A stretch of DNA of 64,000 nt, taken from sequence record PZ386974.1, one strand, 5' to 3'. A program made the translations under genes and the position numbers. The notes under the pieces are model-generated. The model ran no database searches. It saw only the letters and a list, made by a program, of their open reading frames with translations, and was not told where the DNA came from. Position 1 is the first letter of the stretch. The number at the start of each line of letters is the position of its first letter. The stretch is from a phage. Shown in pieces: positions 3,176-23,300 of the stretch.

Positions 3176-3232
3176 CTTATTTCCTTGTTGTTTGACGATA
3201 GATTAATAATACCATACTATTCGTAAAGCATA

Positions 3233-3541: not shown

Positions 3542-4112
3542 AAAAGTTTCGGATTTGTTCCCAATTCAGAGAACGAAGATTATTACGAGAGTACTGAATT
3601 ACTTCAATACCGGCTTGTTTTAGAATTTCGGCCCAATTTTCAGGAGATCTGTCATATAATTCCGCGTATACAACCTTTTTAATACCTGACTGCGTAATAG
3701 CTTTAGTGCAATCAGGACACGGAGAAAGCGTAGTATATAACGTAGCACCTTCAATAGAATTACCTTTACGAGCTGCAAACAAAATTGCGTTCAGTTCCGC
3801 ATGGATTTCGTTATTAGCAGACCATGCACTATGAGCGGCCCGATGTTCTTTAGCCAAAACAAAATTATCCACCCGTCCAAATGCTGTAGTGCCTTCTTTA
3901 TGCCCAGCAACGATGACCGGGCTTGGTTTATTCTTCAACCAACCGTTTTCGGATGCATGTTCGCAACAGTTTGTACCACCTGAAGGAGAGCCATTATAAC
4001 CTGTAGAAATAATGCGTCCATCCTTTTCAATGACGGCACCAACTTTCCATGAACAACATTTTGATTCTTGAGAAATCAGATATGCAATCTGAAGGTATGT
4101 GCTAGCTTTCAT
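3531..4112 (-). CDS. cd: dCMP deaminase
   Basis: 193 aa; zinc-binding HAE and PCxxC motifs (HAELNAI...SPCPDC); size matches T4 Cd; ATG overlaps upstream stop (TAATG). Confidence 0.9.
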   Translation of the reverse strand: MKASTYLQIAYLISQESKCCSWKVGAVIEKDGRIISTGYNGSPSGGTNCCEHASENGWLKNKPSPVIVAGHKEGTTAFGRVDNFVLAKEHRAAHSAWSANNEIHAELNAILFAARKGNSIEGATLYTTLSPCPDCTKAITQSGIKKVVYAELYDRSPENWAEILKQAGIEVIQYSRNNLRSLNWEQIRNFCGE

Positions 4113-5104
4113 TATTGAACCTTATTAATATAAGTTAACAGCTCTTTAGTTTGTTCCCAACTGATGCACGCATCGGTAACGGAAACGCCATAGGACATAT
4201 TATCAGAAATTTTTTGATTTCCTTCATGTAGGAATGATTCTATCATAATTCCTTTGACCAAATCATTAGCTGCTAAATTTTTACCAATACCAATTTGATT
4301 GCTATAATGCCCATCAGCGTTTGCATGGCTACAGTCAACCATTACATAATGATTCAGACCTACTGCCCTTGCTTTGTTAGAAGCTTCTTGAATATCAGAA
4401 GAATGATAGTTCGGGCCGTTGGTCCCACCACGCAATACGATATGCGTATTCTGATTACCTTCAGCTTCAACAATGCCTACAGTACCATCGACGTCCATAC
4501 CCATATACCGATGAGGCCAGGCGGCACTATACATCGCGTCTGTAGCTACTTTAATAGAACCATTGGTTGCGTTCTTGAAGCCTACGCACATCGGTAGACC
4601 TGAAGCAATTTCACGATGTGTCTGACTTTCAGTCGTACGGGCGCCAATAGCAACCCATGAGAAAATACCAGAAAGATACTTAATCGTGAATGGGTCTAAT
4701 ACTTCAGTTGCTAATGGAAGTCCCATACGTAGAAGTTTACGACACAATGTTCGTGCAACTATAAGACCGTGGTTCATATCAAAACTTCCGTCAAGATATG
4801 GATCATTTACAAGACCTTTCCAACCTACGGTAGTTCGAGGCTTTTCAAAATAAACGCGCATCACTAACAGAACATTAGGAAGACGAGTTTGAAGTTCGGC
4901 CAGACGTTTGCCGTATTCAACAGCAGCAATAGGGTCATGAATTGAACAAGGACCTACAACAATAAGTTTGCGTGGGTCTTCACCGTTCATAATCGAATTA
5001 ACTTGTTCGCGATGAGAAGCCACTTGTGATGCGTAAGCTTCCGACAAAGGAATAATCTCAGCCAGTTCTTTTGGAGAAATAAGTTTTCCGACGACAGGTA
5101 ACAT
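4112..5104 (-). CDS. 3-deoxy-D-arabino-heptulosonate-7-phosphate (DAHP) synthase, AroG/F/H-like class I
   Basis: 330 aa; motifs VVGPCSIHD, FEKPRTTVGWKGL, IGARTTESQ, VMVDCSHAN collinear with E. coli AroG; ATG start. Confidence 0.85.
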   Translation of the reverse strand: MLPVVGKLISPKELAEIIPLSEAYASQVASHREQVNSIMNGEDPRKLIVVGPCSIHDPIAAVEYGKRLAELQTRLPNVLLVMRVYFEKPRTTVGWKGLVNDPYLDGSFDMNHGLIVARTLCRKLLRMGLPLATEVLDPFTIKYLSGIFSWVAIGARTTESQTHREIASGLPMCVGFKNATNGSIKVATDAMYSAAWPHRYMGMDVDGTVGIVEAEGNQNTHIVLRGGTNGPNYHSSDIQEASNKARAVGLNHYVMVDCSHANADGHYSNQIGIGKNLAANDLVKGIMIESFLHEGNQKISDNMSYGVSVTDACISWEQTKELLTYINKVQ

Positions 5105-5225
5105 AACAATCCTTAGGAGATATAAACAGATTCTGATTCAACAATACCTTTAACCGGACCACGCCAGGCTAAGTTGGTAGTGCTCAGATTTATGACCATT
5201 CTCGATAGTAATGAGATAGCTCTCA

Positions 5226-5462
5226 TTATAGTGTTCCATATACTCGAGTTGCTTCAACAAGACCATCACTGCCTAATTTAAGGCTAGTAATCTGGCCACC
5301 ATCTTTAGGATTAACGATTATGAGAAAAGAACGTGGAGATTCTTGAATAACTCGTAATGTTGCATCCTGGAAACGTTCAGACACTTTATTGATGAGTGCT
5401 TGAGCAAATTCTTTTACTTTAATCTGAAATTCGTGCACTGTAATTGGGTTTTCACTTAGCAT
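5226..5462 (-). CDS. hypothetical protein (78 aa)
   Basis: ORF track. Confidence 0.45.
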   Translation of the reverse strand: MLSENPITVHEFQIKVKEFAQALINKVSERFQDATLRVIQESPRSFLIIVNPKDGGQITSLKLGSDGLVEATRVYGTL

Positions 5463-5523
5463 TCTGTTTTCCTCATTGTGTTGGTAGAGTTATAGTATCA
5501 CAACTCTACCATGTTGTAAACCA

Positions 5524-6202: not shown

Positions 6203-6203
<1 letters not shown>
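6012..6203 (-). CDS. hypothetical protein (63 aa)
   Basis: ORF track; start overlaps pseT stop. Confidence 0.45.
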
Positions 6204-7289
<1,086 letters not shown>

Positions 7290-8152: not shown

Positions 8153-8505
8153 TCTGAGAGCTTCCTGAGGTCTTCTGCAAAGGAATCGAAGGACCTGTTG
8201 ATTTGTTTTTCGACCAATCCTGGCTTACTTGCCACCACGTTCTTCTTCTTCGAATCCTTACGGAGCTTTTCATTTTCGGCCTTAAGTTGGTCAACTAAAA
8301 CACGGTTCTTATAAGTCATTTCTTCGATTGACTGATATTGAACCTTGAAGTCGTCTAATACTTTAGCATTGTTTTTAGCGGTCTCTTTGACAGAAGCTAA
8401 TTCAGTATTCAACGAATCAACTTTGTTGTTTAAGACAACTATTGTTATCGTAGAAACTAGAGCAAAAGCTGCTACTATAGCATAAATCGGATTTACTTTA
8501 AGCAT
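8149..8505 (-). CDS. inner-membrane spanin (Rz-like)
   Basis: 118 aa; N-terminal TM segment then charged coiled-coil-like region; adjacent to lipoprotein ORF; position matches T4 pseT.3 as recalled. Confidence 0.55.
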   Translation of the reverse strand: MLKVNPIYAIVAAFALVSTITIVVLNNKVDSLNTELASVKETAKNNAKVLDDFKVQYQSIEEMTYKNRVLVDQLKAENEKLRKDSKKKNVVASKPGLVEKQINRSFDSFAEDLRKLSE

Positions 8506-19280: not shown

Positions 19281-20198
19281 TCAGAATTCATTAATTACAC
19301 TTGTTAATTTAGAAAGGCCAGATTTTACAAAGTATGAATAAATCTTGCCTTTAGGTTGTTGTTTATATGAGTTATAATACTCTATAATGGTTGAAGCAAT
19401 ATTATCAGGGATATAATCAAAATCAATGAGAACCAAATTTTCTTGATACCGTTTATATTCTTCTGCACTTAATAATACTTCAGCTTGAGAACGGTCATTA
19501 GCAATTGCTTCAATAATTGATGTTTTCATGCTTGGAGTTCGTTCACCATCAACTCTGGTAAACCAGAAGTCGCCACGAACTCGAACAGATGCAACGCCGT
19601 CTTTACGGTCACCTTTAAGAATTTTAGTCATGCAATCAATTTCAGCAGAACCGTTCTTAATTTTAACCCATTTTTTCTGTGGTGGCGACCACTGTTTAAC
19701 GTTAGGATATTTGTGTAATTGTGTAAAGTCACCATCTGATGCAACAATACATACCTTATGACCAGCTAATGACAAATATTTAGTTAATACACCGATATGG
19801 TCGTCCGCTTCATACTTGTCAATATCCATTACAACGTATGGCATGTATTTCTTAATCTCATCAACAACTTGATGGAGTGCAGTAAAATATCCTTCCCAAT
19901 CCCACTTTGAAGCTTCACGATCGGTTTTACGATTTTTCTTGTAATAGTAAGCAAAGTCACGACGCCAATAACCTGAAGTAGCATTATCCATACACAATAC
20001 AAATTTTGTATAGCCTTGCTTACGGAACATCACTACGTTTTTACGAATTGAATTCAAGATTACATGTCGAACCATTGGAACAGTAATTTTATCACCGTCT
20101 TCAAAGTTGTTTAATGCGGCTGCCAACGCAATGTTACTAAAGTCGGCAAGTGCAATACCTTCTTTGTAATCTTCATCCAACATCATTTCTAAATCCAT
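19281..20198 (-). CDS. rnh: RNase H (5'-3' exonuclease, FEN-1 family)
   Basis: 305 aa, same length and collinear with T4 RNase H as recalled; ATG start. Confidence 0.9.
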   Translation of the reverse strand: MDLEMMLDEDYKEGIALADFSNIALAAALNNFEDGDKITVPMVRHVILNSIRKNVVMFRKQGYTKFVLCMDNATSGYWRRDFAYYYKKNRKTDREASKWDWEGYFTALHQVVDEIKKYMPYVVMDIDKYEADDHIGVLTKYLSLAGHKVCIVASDGDFTQLHKYPNVKQWSPPQKKWVKIKNGSAEIDCMTKILKGDRKDGVASVRVRGDFWFTRVDGERTPSMKTSIIEAIANDRSQAEVLLSAEEYKRYQENLVLIDFDYIPDNIASTIIEYYNSYKQQPKGKIYSYFVKSGLSKLTSVINEF

Positions 20199-20301: not shown

Positions 20302-23300
20302 ATGGCCGACATCAAACGTAAGTTCAGAGCCGAAGACGGTCTGGACGCCGGTGGCGACAAGATTGTTAACGTAGCATTAGCCGACCGTACAGTAGGTACT
20401 GATGGCGTAAACGTTGACTTCCTGGTACAAGAAAACACCGTTCAAGTATATGATTCTACGCGTGGATATAACAAAGGATTTGTTGTTCTTTATGACAACC
20501 GTTTATATCAAGCAATAAATGATATCGTGTCTCCTTCCGGGGCATTTAACCTTTTACAATGGCGTGCAGTTCGTACCGATGCACAATGGATAACTGTAGC
20601 TTCTGGGACTTATCAACTTTCTTCAGGTGAATCGATTTCGGTTAACACCAGTGCCGGCAATGATATGGTTTTCACGTTGCCAAATGCGCCGGTTGATGGT
20701 GACACTATTGTTTTGGCTGATATTGGTGGAAGAACCGGGGCAGTTAAAGTACAGATTAACGCGTCTGTGCAGAGTATTTTAAACTTTAGAGGCGAACAAG
20801 TTCGTACAGTTTTAATGACGCGTCCGCGTTCACAACTAGTGTTTGTGTTTAGTAATCGTTTGTGGCAGATGTATATCATTGATTACGGTAAAGAATCAAT
20901 CACTGTTACACCTGCTACACCATATCAAGCGCAAGCAAACGATTTTATTGTTCTTCGTTTTACTAGTGCAGCACCAATCAACATTACACTTCCACGTAAT
21001 GCTAACAATGGTGATATAATCAGCCTAGTTGATTTAGATAAATTAAACCCACTGTATCATACGATTATTAAAACATTTGATGATACAACGTCTATTGGCG
21101 AAGTCGGGACTCATATCGTCGAAGGTAGAACTTCTTCTGACGCGTTTTTTGTTTTTGATGCTGCAAATAGTTTATGGCGTATATGGGAAGGCGACCAGAA
21201 ATCACGTCTTCGTATTATCCGTACAGATTCAAATATTCGCCCAAATGAAGAAGTTCTTATTTTTGGTACAAATAACGCTACAGCAGAAACTATTAACCTT
21301 ACGCTTCCTACAGGAATTTTGACCGGTGACACTGTTAAAATTTCAATGAACTACATGCGTAAAGGCCAAACAGTAAAAATTAAAGCTGCCGAAGGTGATA
21401 CAATTGCTTCTTCTGTCGCATTACTTCAGTTCCCTAAACGTTCTGAATATCCACCTGATACTCAATGGGTCTCTGTTACTGAACTAGAATTCAATGGCAC
21501 TACTTCATATGTTCCTGTATTAGAATTAGCGTATATCGAAGACACCGATTCTGACACTCATTATTGGGTTGTGCAACAGAATGTCCCTACAGTAGAACGT
21601 GTTGATGCCGGAACTGATGCTACACGAGCTCGTTTAGGTGTTATTGCTCTTGCTACTCAAGCGCAAGCAAATGCTGATTTAGAGAATACTCCAGCTAAAG
21701 AAGTGGCTATTACTCCTGAAACGTTGGCAAATCGTACAGCAACTGAAGCTCGACGTGGTATCGCTAAAATTGCTACAACAGCACAAGTTAACCAGAATTC
21801 CACAGCATCATTTGTGGACGATACTGTTGTTACGCCTAAAAAACTAAATGAGCGTACAGCAACTGAAACTCGTCGTGGTCTTGCTGAAATTGCTACTCAG
21901 ACTGAAACCGATGCTGGTCTTGATGACACAACGATTATTACACCTAAGAAATTGCAGGCACGTCAGGGTTCTGAAACACTATCTGGTATAGTTAAATATG
22001 TATCAACTACTTCTGCTACTCCGGCTGCATCTCGTGGAGCTGCAGGCACTAATGTTTATAATAAAGACACAACCACGTTAACTATTTCTCCTAAAGCCCT
22101 TGACCAATATAAAGCAACTTATGCTCAACAAGGTGCAGTAATTTTAGCTGTTGATAGTGAAGTAATTGCTGGTCAATCACAAGCAGGTTATTCTCATGCT
22201 GTAGTAACTCCTGAAACACTACATAAGAAAACTTCTACTGATGGACGTATTGGTTTAATTGAAATTGCTACGCAAGCAGAAACTAATGCTGGGACTGATT
22301 ATACGCGGGCAGTAACGCCTAAGACGTTAAATGATAGGAAAGCTACGGAAGGATTATCCGGCATAGCCGAACTTGCTACGCAAGTTGAATTTGATACTGG
22401 AACTGATGATACTCGTATCTCGACTCCACTGAAAATTAAAACTCATTTTGATTCTTCTGACCGTACCAGTGTTAATTCTGATTCCGGACTTATTGAAGAA
22501 GGAACCTTGTGGAACCATTATACTCTTGATATTTCTAAAGCAAATGAAACACAACGTGGTACACTTCGCGTAGCGACTCAGGCAGAATCTAATGCAGGAA
22601 CTTTAGATGATGTTCTTATTACTCCTAAAAAGCTTTTAGGGACTAAGTCCACTGAAACGTCTGAAGGTGTAATTAAGGTTGCTACTCGGGCTGAAACTGT
22701 AACAGGAACTTCTGCTAATACTGCTGTATCGCCTAAGAATTTAAAATGGATTGTCCAGAATGAACCAACATGGGCTGCTACTACGGCAATTCGTGGATTC
22801 GTTAAAACTTCATCCGGTTCTATTACATTCGTTGGTAATGATACAGTTGGTTCAACACAACCTTTAGAATCATATGAGAAAAATAGTTATGCGGTATCAC
22901 CATATGAATTAAACCGTGTACTTGCTAACTATTTGCCATTAAAAGCAAAAGCTGCTGACTCAAATTTATTAGATGGCCTAGATTCATCTCAGTTCATTCG
23001 TAGGGACATTGCACAGACGGTTAATGGTTCACTAACCTTAACCCAACAAACGAATCTGAGTGCCCCTCTTGTATCATCTAGTACTGCTACGTTTGGTGGT
23101 TCAGTTTCGGCAAATAGTACATTAACTATTTCTAATACTGGAACGGCAACTCGTCTGATTTTTGAGAAAGGACCTCAAACTGGAACTAACCCAGTGCAGA
23201 CGATGACTATCAGAGTTTGGGGAAATCAGTTTGGTGGCGGTTCAGATACAACACGTTCTACTGTATTTGAGGTTGGTGATGAAACATCTAATCACTTTTA

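Follow-up and report, generated by a model that had tools for sequence, protein, structure and literature searches.

The window analyzed in this work is a stretch of 64,000 nucleotides of phage DNA (sequence record PZ386974.1). Between the genes cd and pseT it encodes a 3-deoxy-7-phosphoheptulonate synthase (DAHP synthase) of type I-alpha, an entry enzyme of the shikimate pathway. The only positions that consistently separate this synthase and its phage relatives from bacterial homologs lie in or beside the pocket through which aromatic amino acids inhibit such enzymes. We consider it rather probable (about 0.6) that the gene encodes an early-expressed, active DAHP synthase that would escape feedback by phenylalanine (Phe), by tyrosine (Tyr) and by tryptophan (Trp). 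The gene itself is ordinary database knowledge; the added value of the analysis is a specific and easily testable prediction concerning the feedback site.

Enzyme family and active site

An earlier reading of the same DNA (hereafter the original prediction) described a full-length class I DAHP synthase of 330 amino acids (aa) between cd and pseT. The list of open reading frames (ORFs), Pfam and NCBIfam all agree with that description. The Pfam search returned DAHP_synth_1 (PF00793; E=5.2e-75, 252 bits). The NCBIfam equivalog TIGR00034 (aroFGH; EC 2.5.1.54) scored 427.7 bits against a cut-off of 173.2, and PRK12755 scored 455 bits against 343. Models specific to single isozymes remained below their cut-offs (AroG NF006723, 363 vs 568; AroH NF009396, 386 vs 463). 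The four motifs quoted earlier are present in the translation, which contains LIVVGPCSIHDP, YFEKPRTTVGWKGL, AIGARTTESQ and VMVDCSHAN. The ATG of the ORF is the first start codon past the upstream in-frame stop, therefore an N-terminal extension of the ORF is impossible. A ribosome-binding site, AAGGA, lies 7 nucleotides 5' of this ATG.

In E. coli AroG we take C61, H268, E302 and D326 to be the metal ligands, and R92, K97, P98-R99-T100 (the KPRT motif), G163-A164-R165, K186 and R234 to bind phosphoenolpyruvate (PEP) or erythrose-4-phosphate (E4P), following the structures of Shumilin et al. The alignment of these ligands shows all 14 residues intact in the window synthase: C53, R83, K88, P89, R90, T91, G154, A155, R156, K177, R225, H260, E289 and D311, of which C53, H260, E289 and D311 correspond to the metal ligands. 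They are invariant in all 24 phage-clade homologs and in every bacterial homolog examined. Judged by these residues, the ORF encodes a genuine type I-alpha DAHP synthase whose active site is intact, and the enzyme would be expected to carry out the metal-dependent conversion of PEP and E4P to DAHP.

The product could in principle be something else: a KDO8P-synthase-like (3-deoxy-D-manno-octulosonate-8-phosphate synthase-like) enzyme that makes another 3-deoxy sugar acid, or a decaying passenger. PF00793 does cover KDO8P synthases too, the genome paper on phage phiC120 lists the domain in passing and names lipopolysaccharide in connection with it (PMC8022965), and the gene is dispensable in some genomes of Mosigvirus, the RB69-like group discussed below. 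However, TIGR00034 was passed widely, and the NCBIfam search gave no KDO8P synthase (KdsA) model at E<=0.01, its sole further match being the B. subtilis-type DAHPS model (E=0.004). KDO8P synthase identity was rejected by this result, in line with the class assignment of the original prediction, and the KPRT motif for the E4P phosphate is intact together with all metal ligands. Against decay, all 213 phage records in which a tblastn search covered at least 80% of the query have an intact ORF, and the ratio of nonsynonymous to synonymous substitution rates (dN/dS) between genera is 0.15-0.24. A product other than a functional DAHP synthase is hardly credible.

An AlphaFold2 model built from a 56-sequence alignment has high confidence values (predicted local distance difference test 93.1, predicted template modeling (TM) score 0.92). 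It contains a (beta/alpha)8 barrel with the inserted b6a/b6b hairpin, the strands of which occupy residues 198-203 and 209-214. In a Foldseek search the model matched DAH7PS (DAHP synthase) structures of N. meningitidis and E. coli (4HSO, 1KFL, 8E0X) with a TM score of 0.96 and a root mean square deviation of 1.4 A.

By sequence, the closest solved chain is that of E. coli AroF (6AGM/6AGL; E=5e-105). The collinearity with AroG claimed in the original prediction holds at 47% identity, yet the synthase is closer to AroF (51%); identity to the third K-12 paralog, AroH, is 44%. The Tyr-sensitive AroF aligns over its full length and has the same barrel, hairpin and catalytic, metal, PEP and E4P residues. 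Like AroF, the phage synthase has Gly at the AroF-212 position and has no Arg of the AroG type for the tetramer salt bridge. It differs from AroF in being 26 residues shorter (about nine at the N-terminus, internal loops of five and three, and the C-terminal tail) and in its pocket (P151>I, Q152>K, D156>G, S181>P, F210>Y). It also branches outside all bacterial AroF with 100% bootstrap support and is encoded by a lytic phage behind a phage early promoter that presumably drives it. The Phe-sensitive AroG (1KFL, 1QR7) belongs to the same family and fold, with the TM score given above.

Inhibitor pocket and N-terminus

Phe, Tyr or Trp inhibits type I-alpha enzymes by binding in a pocket at the tight-dimer interface. 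Their allosteric machinery consists of an extension at the N-terminus together with a beta-hairpin (PMC4735112). In a scan of 330 aligned columns we asked which positions reach 90% conservation within each of two groups, 24 phage-clade and 98 bacterial sequences, and yet differ between them. Only six columns passed, in AroG numbering P150>I, Q151>K, D155>G, S180>P, F209>Y and T223>A. The corresponding residues of the window synthase are I141, K142, G146, P171, Y200 and A214 (signature IKGPYA).

Four of the six (150, 151, 180 and 209) are documented inhibitor-pocket residues, D155 stabilizes the pocket, and T223 adjoins it. In AroG, P150L and D146N give full feedback resistance, and S180F, L175D, L179A, F209A/S and V221A are resistant as well (PMC9529685). 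The main chain of bound Phe or Tyr is contacted by Q151 and S180 of AroG (Q152 and S181 of AroF), and D155 steadies the inhibitor site by a salt bridge (PMC9529685). The column of AroG 223 is two residues past V221, on the hairpin. All substitutions that define the clade are in or beside the pocket, at positions chosen in engineering work to make AroG and AroF resistant to feedback. The phage synthase is naturally substituted where resistant AroG variants have been made (P150L, S180F, F209A, Q151 mutants). Its residues I, K, P and Y are not the laboratory ones, and they are joined by D155G, T223A and an N-terminal truncation. A literature search for AroF N8K found nothing.

The canonical pocket residues P150, Q151, D155, S180 and F209, all replaced in the phage clade, are otherwise widely retained. 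The P-Q-S-F combination is kept in 79 of 80 bacterial genomes spanning many phyla, and about 95 bacterial homologs in the alignments also have the canonical pocket. Among 80 loci from IMG/VR, IKGPYA occurs in the ten Straboviridae loci only, and almost all giant-virus loci keep the canonical residues.

The N-terminus has changed too. Phage-clade proteins have 9-13 residues before AroG position 20 (11 in the window synthase) vs 17-54 in bacteria. The N-terminal extension is about 6-10 residues shorter in the phage clade, and residues aligned with AroG D6/D7, which we take to be part of the neighboring subunit's contribution to the pocket, are absent.

On these grounds the whole phage clade is predicted to be a natural feedback-site variant of the AroF family. 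The original prediction had the enzyme "perhaps escaping host feedback inhibition"; the in silico evidence now favors this idea, the sole clade-separating residues being in or beside the pocket. A cellular parallel is PhzC of P. aeruginosa, a DAH7PS that has lost allosteric elements and with them its sensitivity to aromatic amino acids (PMC6435475). PhzC is likewise a natural unregulated enzyme and gives shikimate flux to a special purpose, phenazine synthesis. It differs in being of type IIB, in omitting helices a2a/a2b, and in being cellular rather than viral.

Several points weigh against the reading as an active synthase free of feedback control. The b6a/b6b hairpin is retained in the AlphaFold2 model, and its conservation is not relaxed compared with bacteria (entropy ratio 0.85, vs 0.81 overall). 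I-K-G-P-Y-A is nearly invariant within a phage clade that spans 55-98% identity. Had the pocket simply died, some drift might be expected; it could therefore still hold a ligand or have a part in the dimer interface. Dimer formation in AroG also involves the N-terminus, and its shortening could affect assembly and not regulation alone. The synthase gene is missing from about 7% of Mosigvirus records and from T4, therefore any benefit would be conditional. Literature searches for phage DAHP synthases gave passing mentions only and found no assay, knockout, expression or phenotype study.

Some of the same observations would fit a regulatory site that has been retuned and not lost. The pocket would then bind a different effector and tie shikimate entry to the metabolic state of the phage; candidates are an anionic or phage-specific metabolite, for example a nucleotide or an intermediate of the folate pathway, and chorismate or prephenate. 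Across phage genera of only 55-77% overall identity, conservation of the six substituted residues does not fall below 96%, the hairpin is kept and is no more variable than the bacterial one, Q151>K puts a positive charge where the main chain of the inhibitor is normally contacted, and the gene lies among the nucleotide-metabolism genes cd, nrdAB, td and frd. Nevertheless, no ligand can be named from sequence, Pro at 180 and the short N-terminus remove two elements that normally close the pocket, and the conservation could equally reflect packing of the tight-dimer interface. We regard retuning as unlikely.

It is quite unlikely that the synthase is an ordinary feedback-sensitive isozyme, an extra dose of enzyme that replaces host AroF, AroG and AroH when their synthesis stops after infection, with pocket changes that merely alter which of Phe, Tyr and Trp it responds to. 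The general architecture is indeed kept, the hairpin included, as is Gly at the AroF G212/AroG S211 position, which presumably goes with Tyr-type specificity, as in yeast and Neisseria enzymes. But Q151 and S180 bind the main chain of the inhibitor in AroG and AroF and are kept in bacteria regardless of specificity, and both are replaced in the phage clade. So is P150, and P150L alone abolishes inhibition of AroG. The N-terminal residues aligned with AroG 6-7 are also absent.

Origin of the gene

In a search of 5.8 billion proteins, the first 23 matches and one more were phage or phage-like proteins of 319-343 aa with 55-98% identity. They were followed by bacterial enzymes (341-388 aa) at no more than 55% identity. 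The best cellular match in one genome each of 185,579 species had at most 52% identity. In a neighbor-joining tree of 76 sequences the phage proteins form a clade in 100 of 100 bootstraps, and the sister group includes enterobacterial AroF. Within Mosigvirus, dN/dS is 0.22-0.44. By these comparisons the synthase is an old, single acquisition under purifying selection, a Straboviridae-specific clade from an AroF-like ancestor.

A recent capture from the E. coli host was rejected, given the identities to AroF, AroG and AroH, the lack of any cellular protein above about 55% in these searches, and a GC content that is barely raised (0.42-0.45 in the gene vs 0.37-0.39 in the flanks). Most other low-identity "phage" matches could not be used as independent cases. 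The "Acinetobacter phage MD-2021a" contigs (CAKLQH020000056.1, CAKLQH020000043.1) carry the bacterial genes clpA, cobS, bioH and fadH and two ordinary aroF genes, and look like bacterial chromosome contigs under a phage name. Fecal "Bacteriophage sp." records are unverified fragments.

Distribution among phages and annotation status

The original prediction placed the DNA in a T4 (Tequatrovirus) framework, which has to be abandoned. The window comes from a Mosigvirus: around the synthase, a query of 3.4 kb has 98.8% identity to phage moskry and 95-99% to a set of Mosigvirus genomes that includes moskry, JS09, Shf125875 and phiC120. Matches of this query to T4-type phages are confined to its gene 31 end. 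The cd-pseT interval of T4 was described correctly: it holds the small ORFs cd.1 to cd.5 and no synthase. The gene is accordingly not universal among reference T-even phages, being absent from both T4 and RB69. Its implied rarity was mistaken: 140 of the 213 phage records have a synthase at least 95% identical to that of the window, vs 11 Mosigvirus records with an empty site, and the gene is already annotated as an auxiliary metabolic gene.

The synthase matches PHROG 5045 over its full length (E=3.2e-182, residues 1-330 vs profile positions 8-337 of 341), a family that PHROGs places in the category "moron, auxiliary metabolic gene and host takeover". GenBank names vary (phospho-2-dehydro-3-deoxyheptonate aldolase, aroF, AroG, DAHP synthetase). 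Under PHROG 5045 and the first of these names, the same protein at the same pseT-cd locus is recorded in Mosigvirus, Kanagawavirus, Winklervirus, Bragavirus and Klebsiella T4-like phages, and it is 100% identical to the window synthase in, for example, Shf125875, O157 typing phages 3/6/13, phiC120 and p000v. Nothing distinguishes the window copy from the catalogued auxiliary metabolic gene, of which it is a further copy. The gene occurs widely among RB69-like phages and their relatives and has been catalogued before. In a paper on Klebsiella phages, the copy from Kanagawavirus is described as an auxiliary metabolic gene, with a supply of aromatic amino acids as its guessed role (PMC11845039), and another paper does not mention the phage synthase gene (PMC6563131).

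Neighboring genes of this locus are also named inconsistently. The dCMP deaminase (deoxycytidine monophosphate deaminase) is labeled "riboflavin biosynthesis protein RibD" in Shigella phage phi25-307 (locus L011, 1193-1390). In Enterobacter phage Entb_45 it is labeled "tRNA-specific adenosine deaminase" (locus L012, 3997-4545), and pseT "AAA family ATPase" (1279-2178).

The conserved locus and a presence/absence cassette

The pseT-cd locus with the synthase is found in at least four further Straboviridae lineages: Kanagawavirus (PEi20, Entb_45), Winklervirus (Serratia X20), Klebsiella phage EI and Bragavirus (Proteus PM2). Synthase identity to the window is 59-77% in these lineages. The shared gene order is pseT, small ORFs, synthase, zero to two small ORFs or homing endonucleases, cd, 31.x, 31 and rIII. 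In the window, the surrounding 20 kb are the standard T-even nucleotide-precursor cluster (cd, pseT, alc, rnlA, nrdB, nrdA, td, frd, gene 32). No other gene of the shikimate, chorismate or folate branches is annotated in moskry beyond the usual td and frd.

Mosigvirus itself is polymorphic. In the 11 empty-site records (RB69 (2), moha, JK36, JK42, vB_Eco_mar005P1 (5), ECO111 5-P) cd.2 directly abuts cd. Moskry, with the synthase, and moha, without it, belong to the same species. The block that is present or absent comprises 1114 bp, from about 4109 to 5222 of the window, and holds the synthase gene and an ORF for 36 aa (the mini-ORF). At either end lies a copy of an imperfect direct repeat, TAGCT(T/C)TCATTAT, which consists of the TAATG gene junction and the first cd codons (Table 1). 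This geometry fits deletion or insertion through short-homology recombination.

The mini-ORF begins (ATGAGAGCTA) with a copy of the cd start, which forms a TAATG overlap with the stop of cd.2. Its 17 C-terminal residues match phrog_15876 (41 aa, function unknown; E=2e-7), and in phage AV112 it is annotated as a coding sequence of 41 aa. We considered T4 cd.1 and the mini-ORF as possible decayed remnants of the synthase and found no similarity.

Table 1. Features at and around the DAHP synthase locus (positions in the window)
Feature	Position	Strand	Remarks
DAHP synthase, type I-alpha, 330 aa	4112..5104	minus	ORF list, profile searches
TAATG, overlap of synthase stop and cd start	4110..4114	minus	read from DNA
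cd, dCMP deaminase, 193 aa	3531..4112	minus	directly downstream, same transcription unit
Mini-ORF, 36 aa (MRAISLLSRMVINLSTTNLAWRGPVKGIVESESVYIS)	5116..5226	minus	between cd.2 and synthase, inside the 1.1-kb cassette
cd.2 homolog, 78 aa, phrog_1504	5226..5462	minus	first gene past the early promoter, upstream of the cassette
pseT	6203..7102	minus	upstream of synthase, four small ORFs between
Direct repeat, proximal copy	4103..4116
Direct repeat, distal copy	5216..5229		cd.2 joins cd here in empty-site genomes
Early-promoter ortholog, GTTTACA-17-TGTGATACTAT	5492..5520	minus	cd.3-cd.2 spacer, about 390 nucleotides upstream of synthase start
MotA-box-like sites, examples	3206-3230, 6486-6510, 8479-8504, 19374-19398, 22517-22542	minus	the second is inside pseT

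Expression context

The early-promoter ortholog in Table 1 matches the annotated T4 early promoter Pe133295 (GTTTAC...TGTGATA(C/T)TAT) at nearly every base, and it is conserved though the two phages are otherwise too diverged here for a megablast match. The synthase is the third reading frame past it, after cd.2 and the mini-ORF. No dedicated promoter was found directly upstream of the synthase; a general sigma-70 scan gave 15 sites vs 13.8 in shuffles. The MotA-box pattern TGCTTNA-N11-13-TANNNT occurs 14 times in the window vs 3.5 expected from shuffles, mostly on the minus strand and upstream of early or middle genes. By homology with T4, early or middle expression of the synthase is likely.

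The tight linkage to cd by TAATG, noted in the original prediction, is seen in the DNA behind this promoter, and the overlap implies probable translational coupling of the two genes.

Such coupling would suit the view that the drain and not the product is useful to the phage. Consumption of E4P and PEP would pull the non-oxidative pentose-phosphate equilibria toward pentose phosphates for nucleotides, or would reduce PEP-dependent sugar uptake, with aromatics being incidental. The synthase is apparently co-transcribed and translationally coupled with dCMP deaminase inside the nucleotide-precursor cluster, and a deregulated enzyme would be a constitutive sink. Cyanophage genes thought to redirect the pentose-phosphate pathway provide an analogy. 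This argument is purely inferential, and it is compatible with a feedback-free synthase and does not exclude it; as the principal benefit, the drain seems very unlikely.

On the opposite strand within the synthase gene, at 4280-4308 (+), there is a sigma-70-like site matching 10 of 12 positions with a TG extension (TTTACC-17-TATAAT). A weak terminator-like hairpin (4430-4447, +) follows about 120 nucleotides past it. The promoter-like site could be a chance occurrence, because the regional promoter count is not above that of shuffles.

Proposed role

If the synthase does escape feedback, it could act as follows. Early in infection, the promoter between cd.3 and cd.2 would be transcribed, the unit comprising cd.2, the mini-ORF, the synthase and cd. 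The enzyme made would have an untouched catalytic barrel and a rebuilt allosteric apparatus, with a short N-terminus and replaced contacts to the main chain of the inhibitor. Its pocket would no longer accept Phe, Tyr or Trp, and the enzyme would not be shut off. Host transcription would stop after infection, and leftover AroG and AroF would remain under feedback. The phage synthase would sustain the entry of PEP and E4P into the shikimate pathway, and surviving host enzymes would carry on to chorismate. The flux could thereby persist with host aroF, aroG and aroH repressed, untranscribed or feedback-inhibited. Candidate products of chorismate are aromatic amino acids for virion protein, para-aminobenzoate (pABA) and folate, and quinones. 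The pABA/folate branch would serve the heavy one-carbon demand of the phage (td, frd, hydroxymethylase).

We lean slightly toward a broader proposal. Straboviridae DAHP synthases would form a previously undescribed type I-alpha subclass with a rebuilt allosteric site, marked by the invariant I-K-G-P-Y-A and the truncated N-terminus. Members would be either permanently "on" or under a non-aromatic effector relevant to the phage. The subclass would constitute a viral override of host shikimate and chorismate control, possibly for pABA and folate leading to hydroxymethyl-dCMP and dTMP (deoxythymidine monophosphate).

Should the proposal hold, a lytic coliphage would clearly be overriding the allosteric brake on a biosynthetic pathway of its host. 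A further gain would be a ready-made, natural feedback-resistant DAHP synthase for strains producing aromatic compounds. A fitness test is made easier by pairs of naturally isogenic phages, one with and one without the 1.1-kb cassette (moskry and moha, for example).

Other virus-borne DAHP synthases

Two further viral sequences have altered pockets. A 261.8-kb viral contig (IMGVR_UViG_3300028829_003504; locus L113, 2956-4002, +), noted together with locus L114, encodes a synthase with intact catalytic residues and the pocket P-N-H-P-Y-S. It has S180>P and F209>Y in common with the Straboviridae clade at only 49% identity, and its neighbors on either side are a eukaryotic-type topoisomerase I and a thymidylate kinase. 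Aeromonas phage HJ05 (OQ594355.1, 79 kb; locus L009, 2899-4062, +) has a 38%-identical homolog annotated as hypothetical. This protein keeps all catalytic residues and has a non-canonical pocket, with A-H at 150/151, P at 180 and V at 209. The HJ05 homolog may represent independent remodeling of the pocket in a phage, and together the two cases suggest that altered pockets may recur among virus-borne synthases.

Giant-virus metagenome-assembled contigs (IMG/VR GVMAG) encode many canonical type I-alpha DAHP synthases. At least 13 giant-virus proteins have 630-680 aa (loci L142, L148, L151, L160, L162, L165, L168-L170, L173, L176, L177 and L180). In the one that was checked (L142, 2980-5013, +), DAHP_synth_1 is fused to prephenate dehydratase, which joins the pathway-entry and Phe-branch enzymes in one chain.

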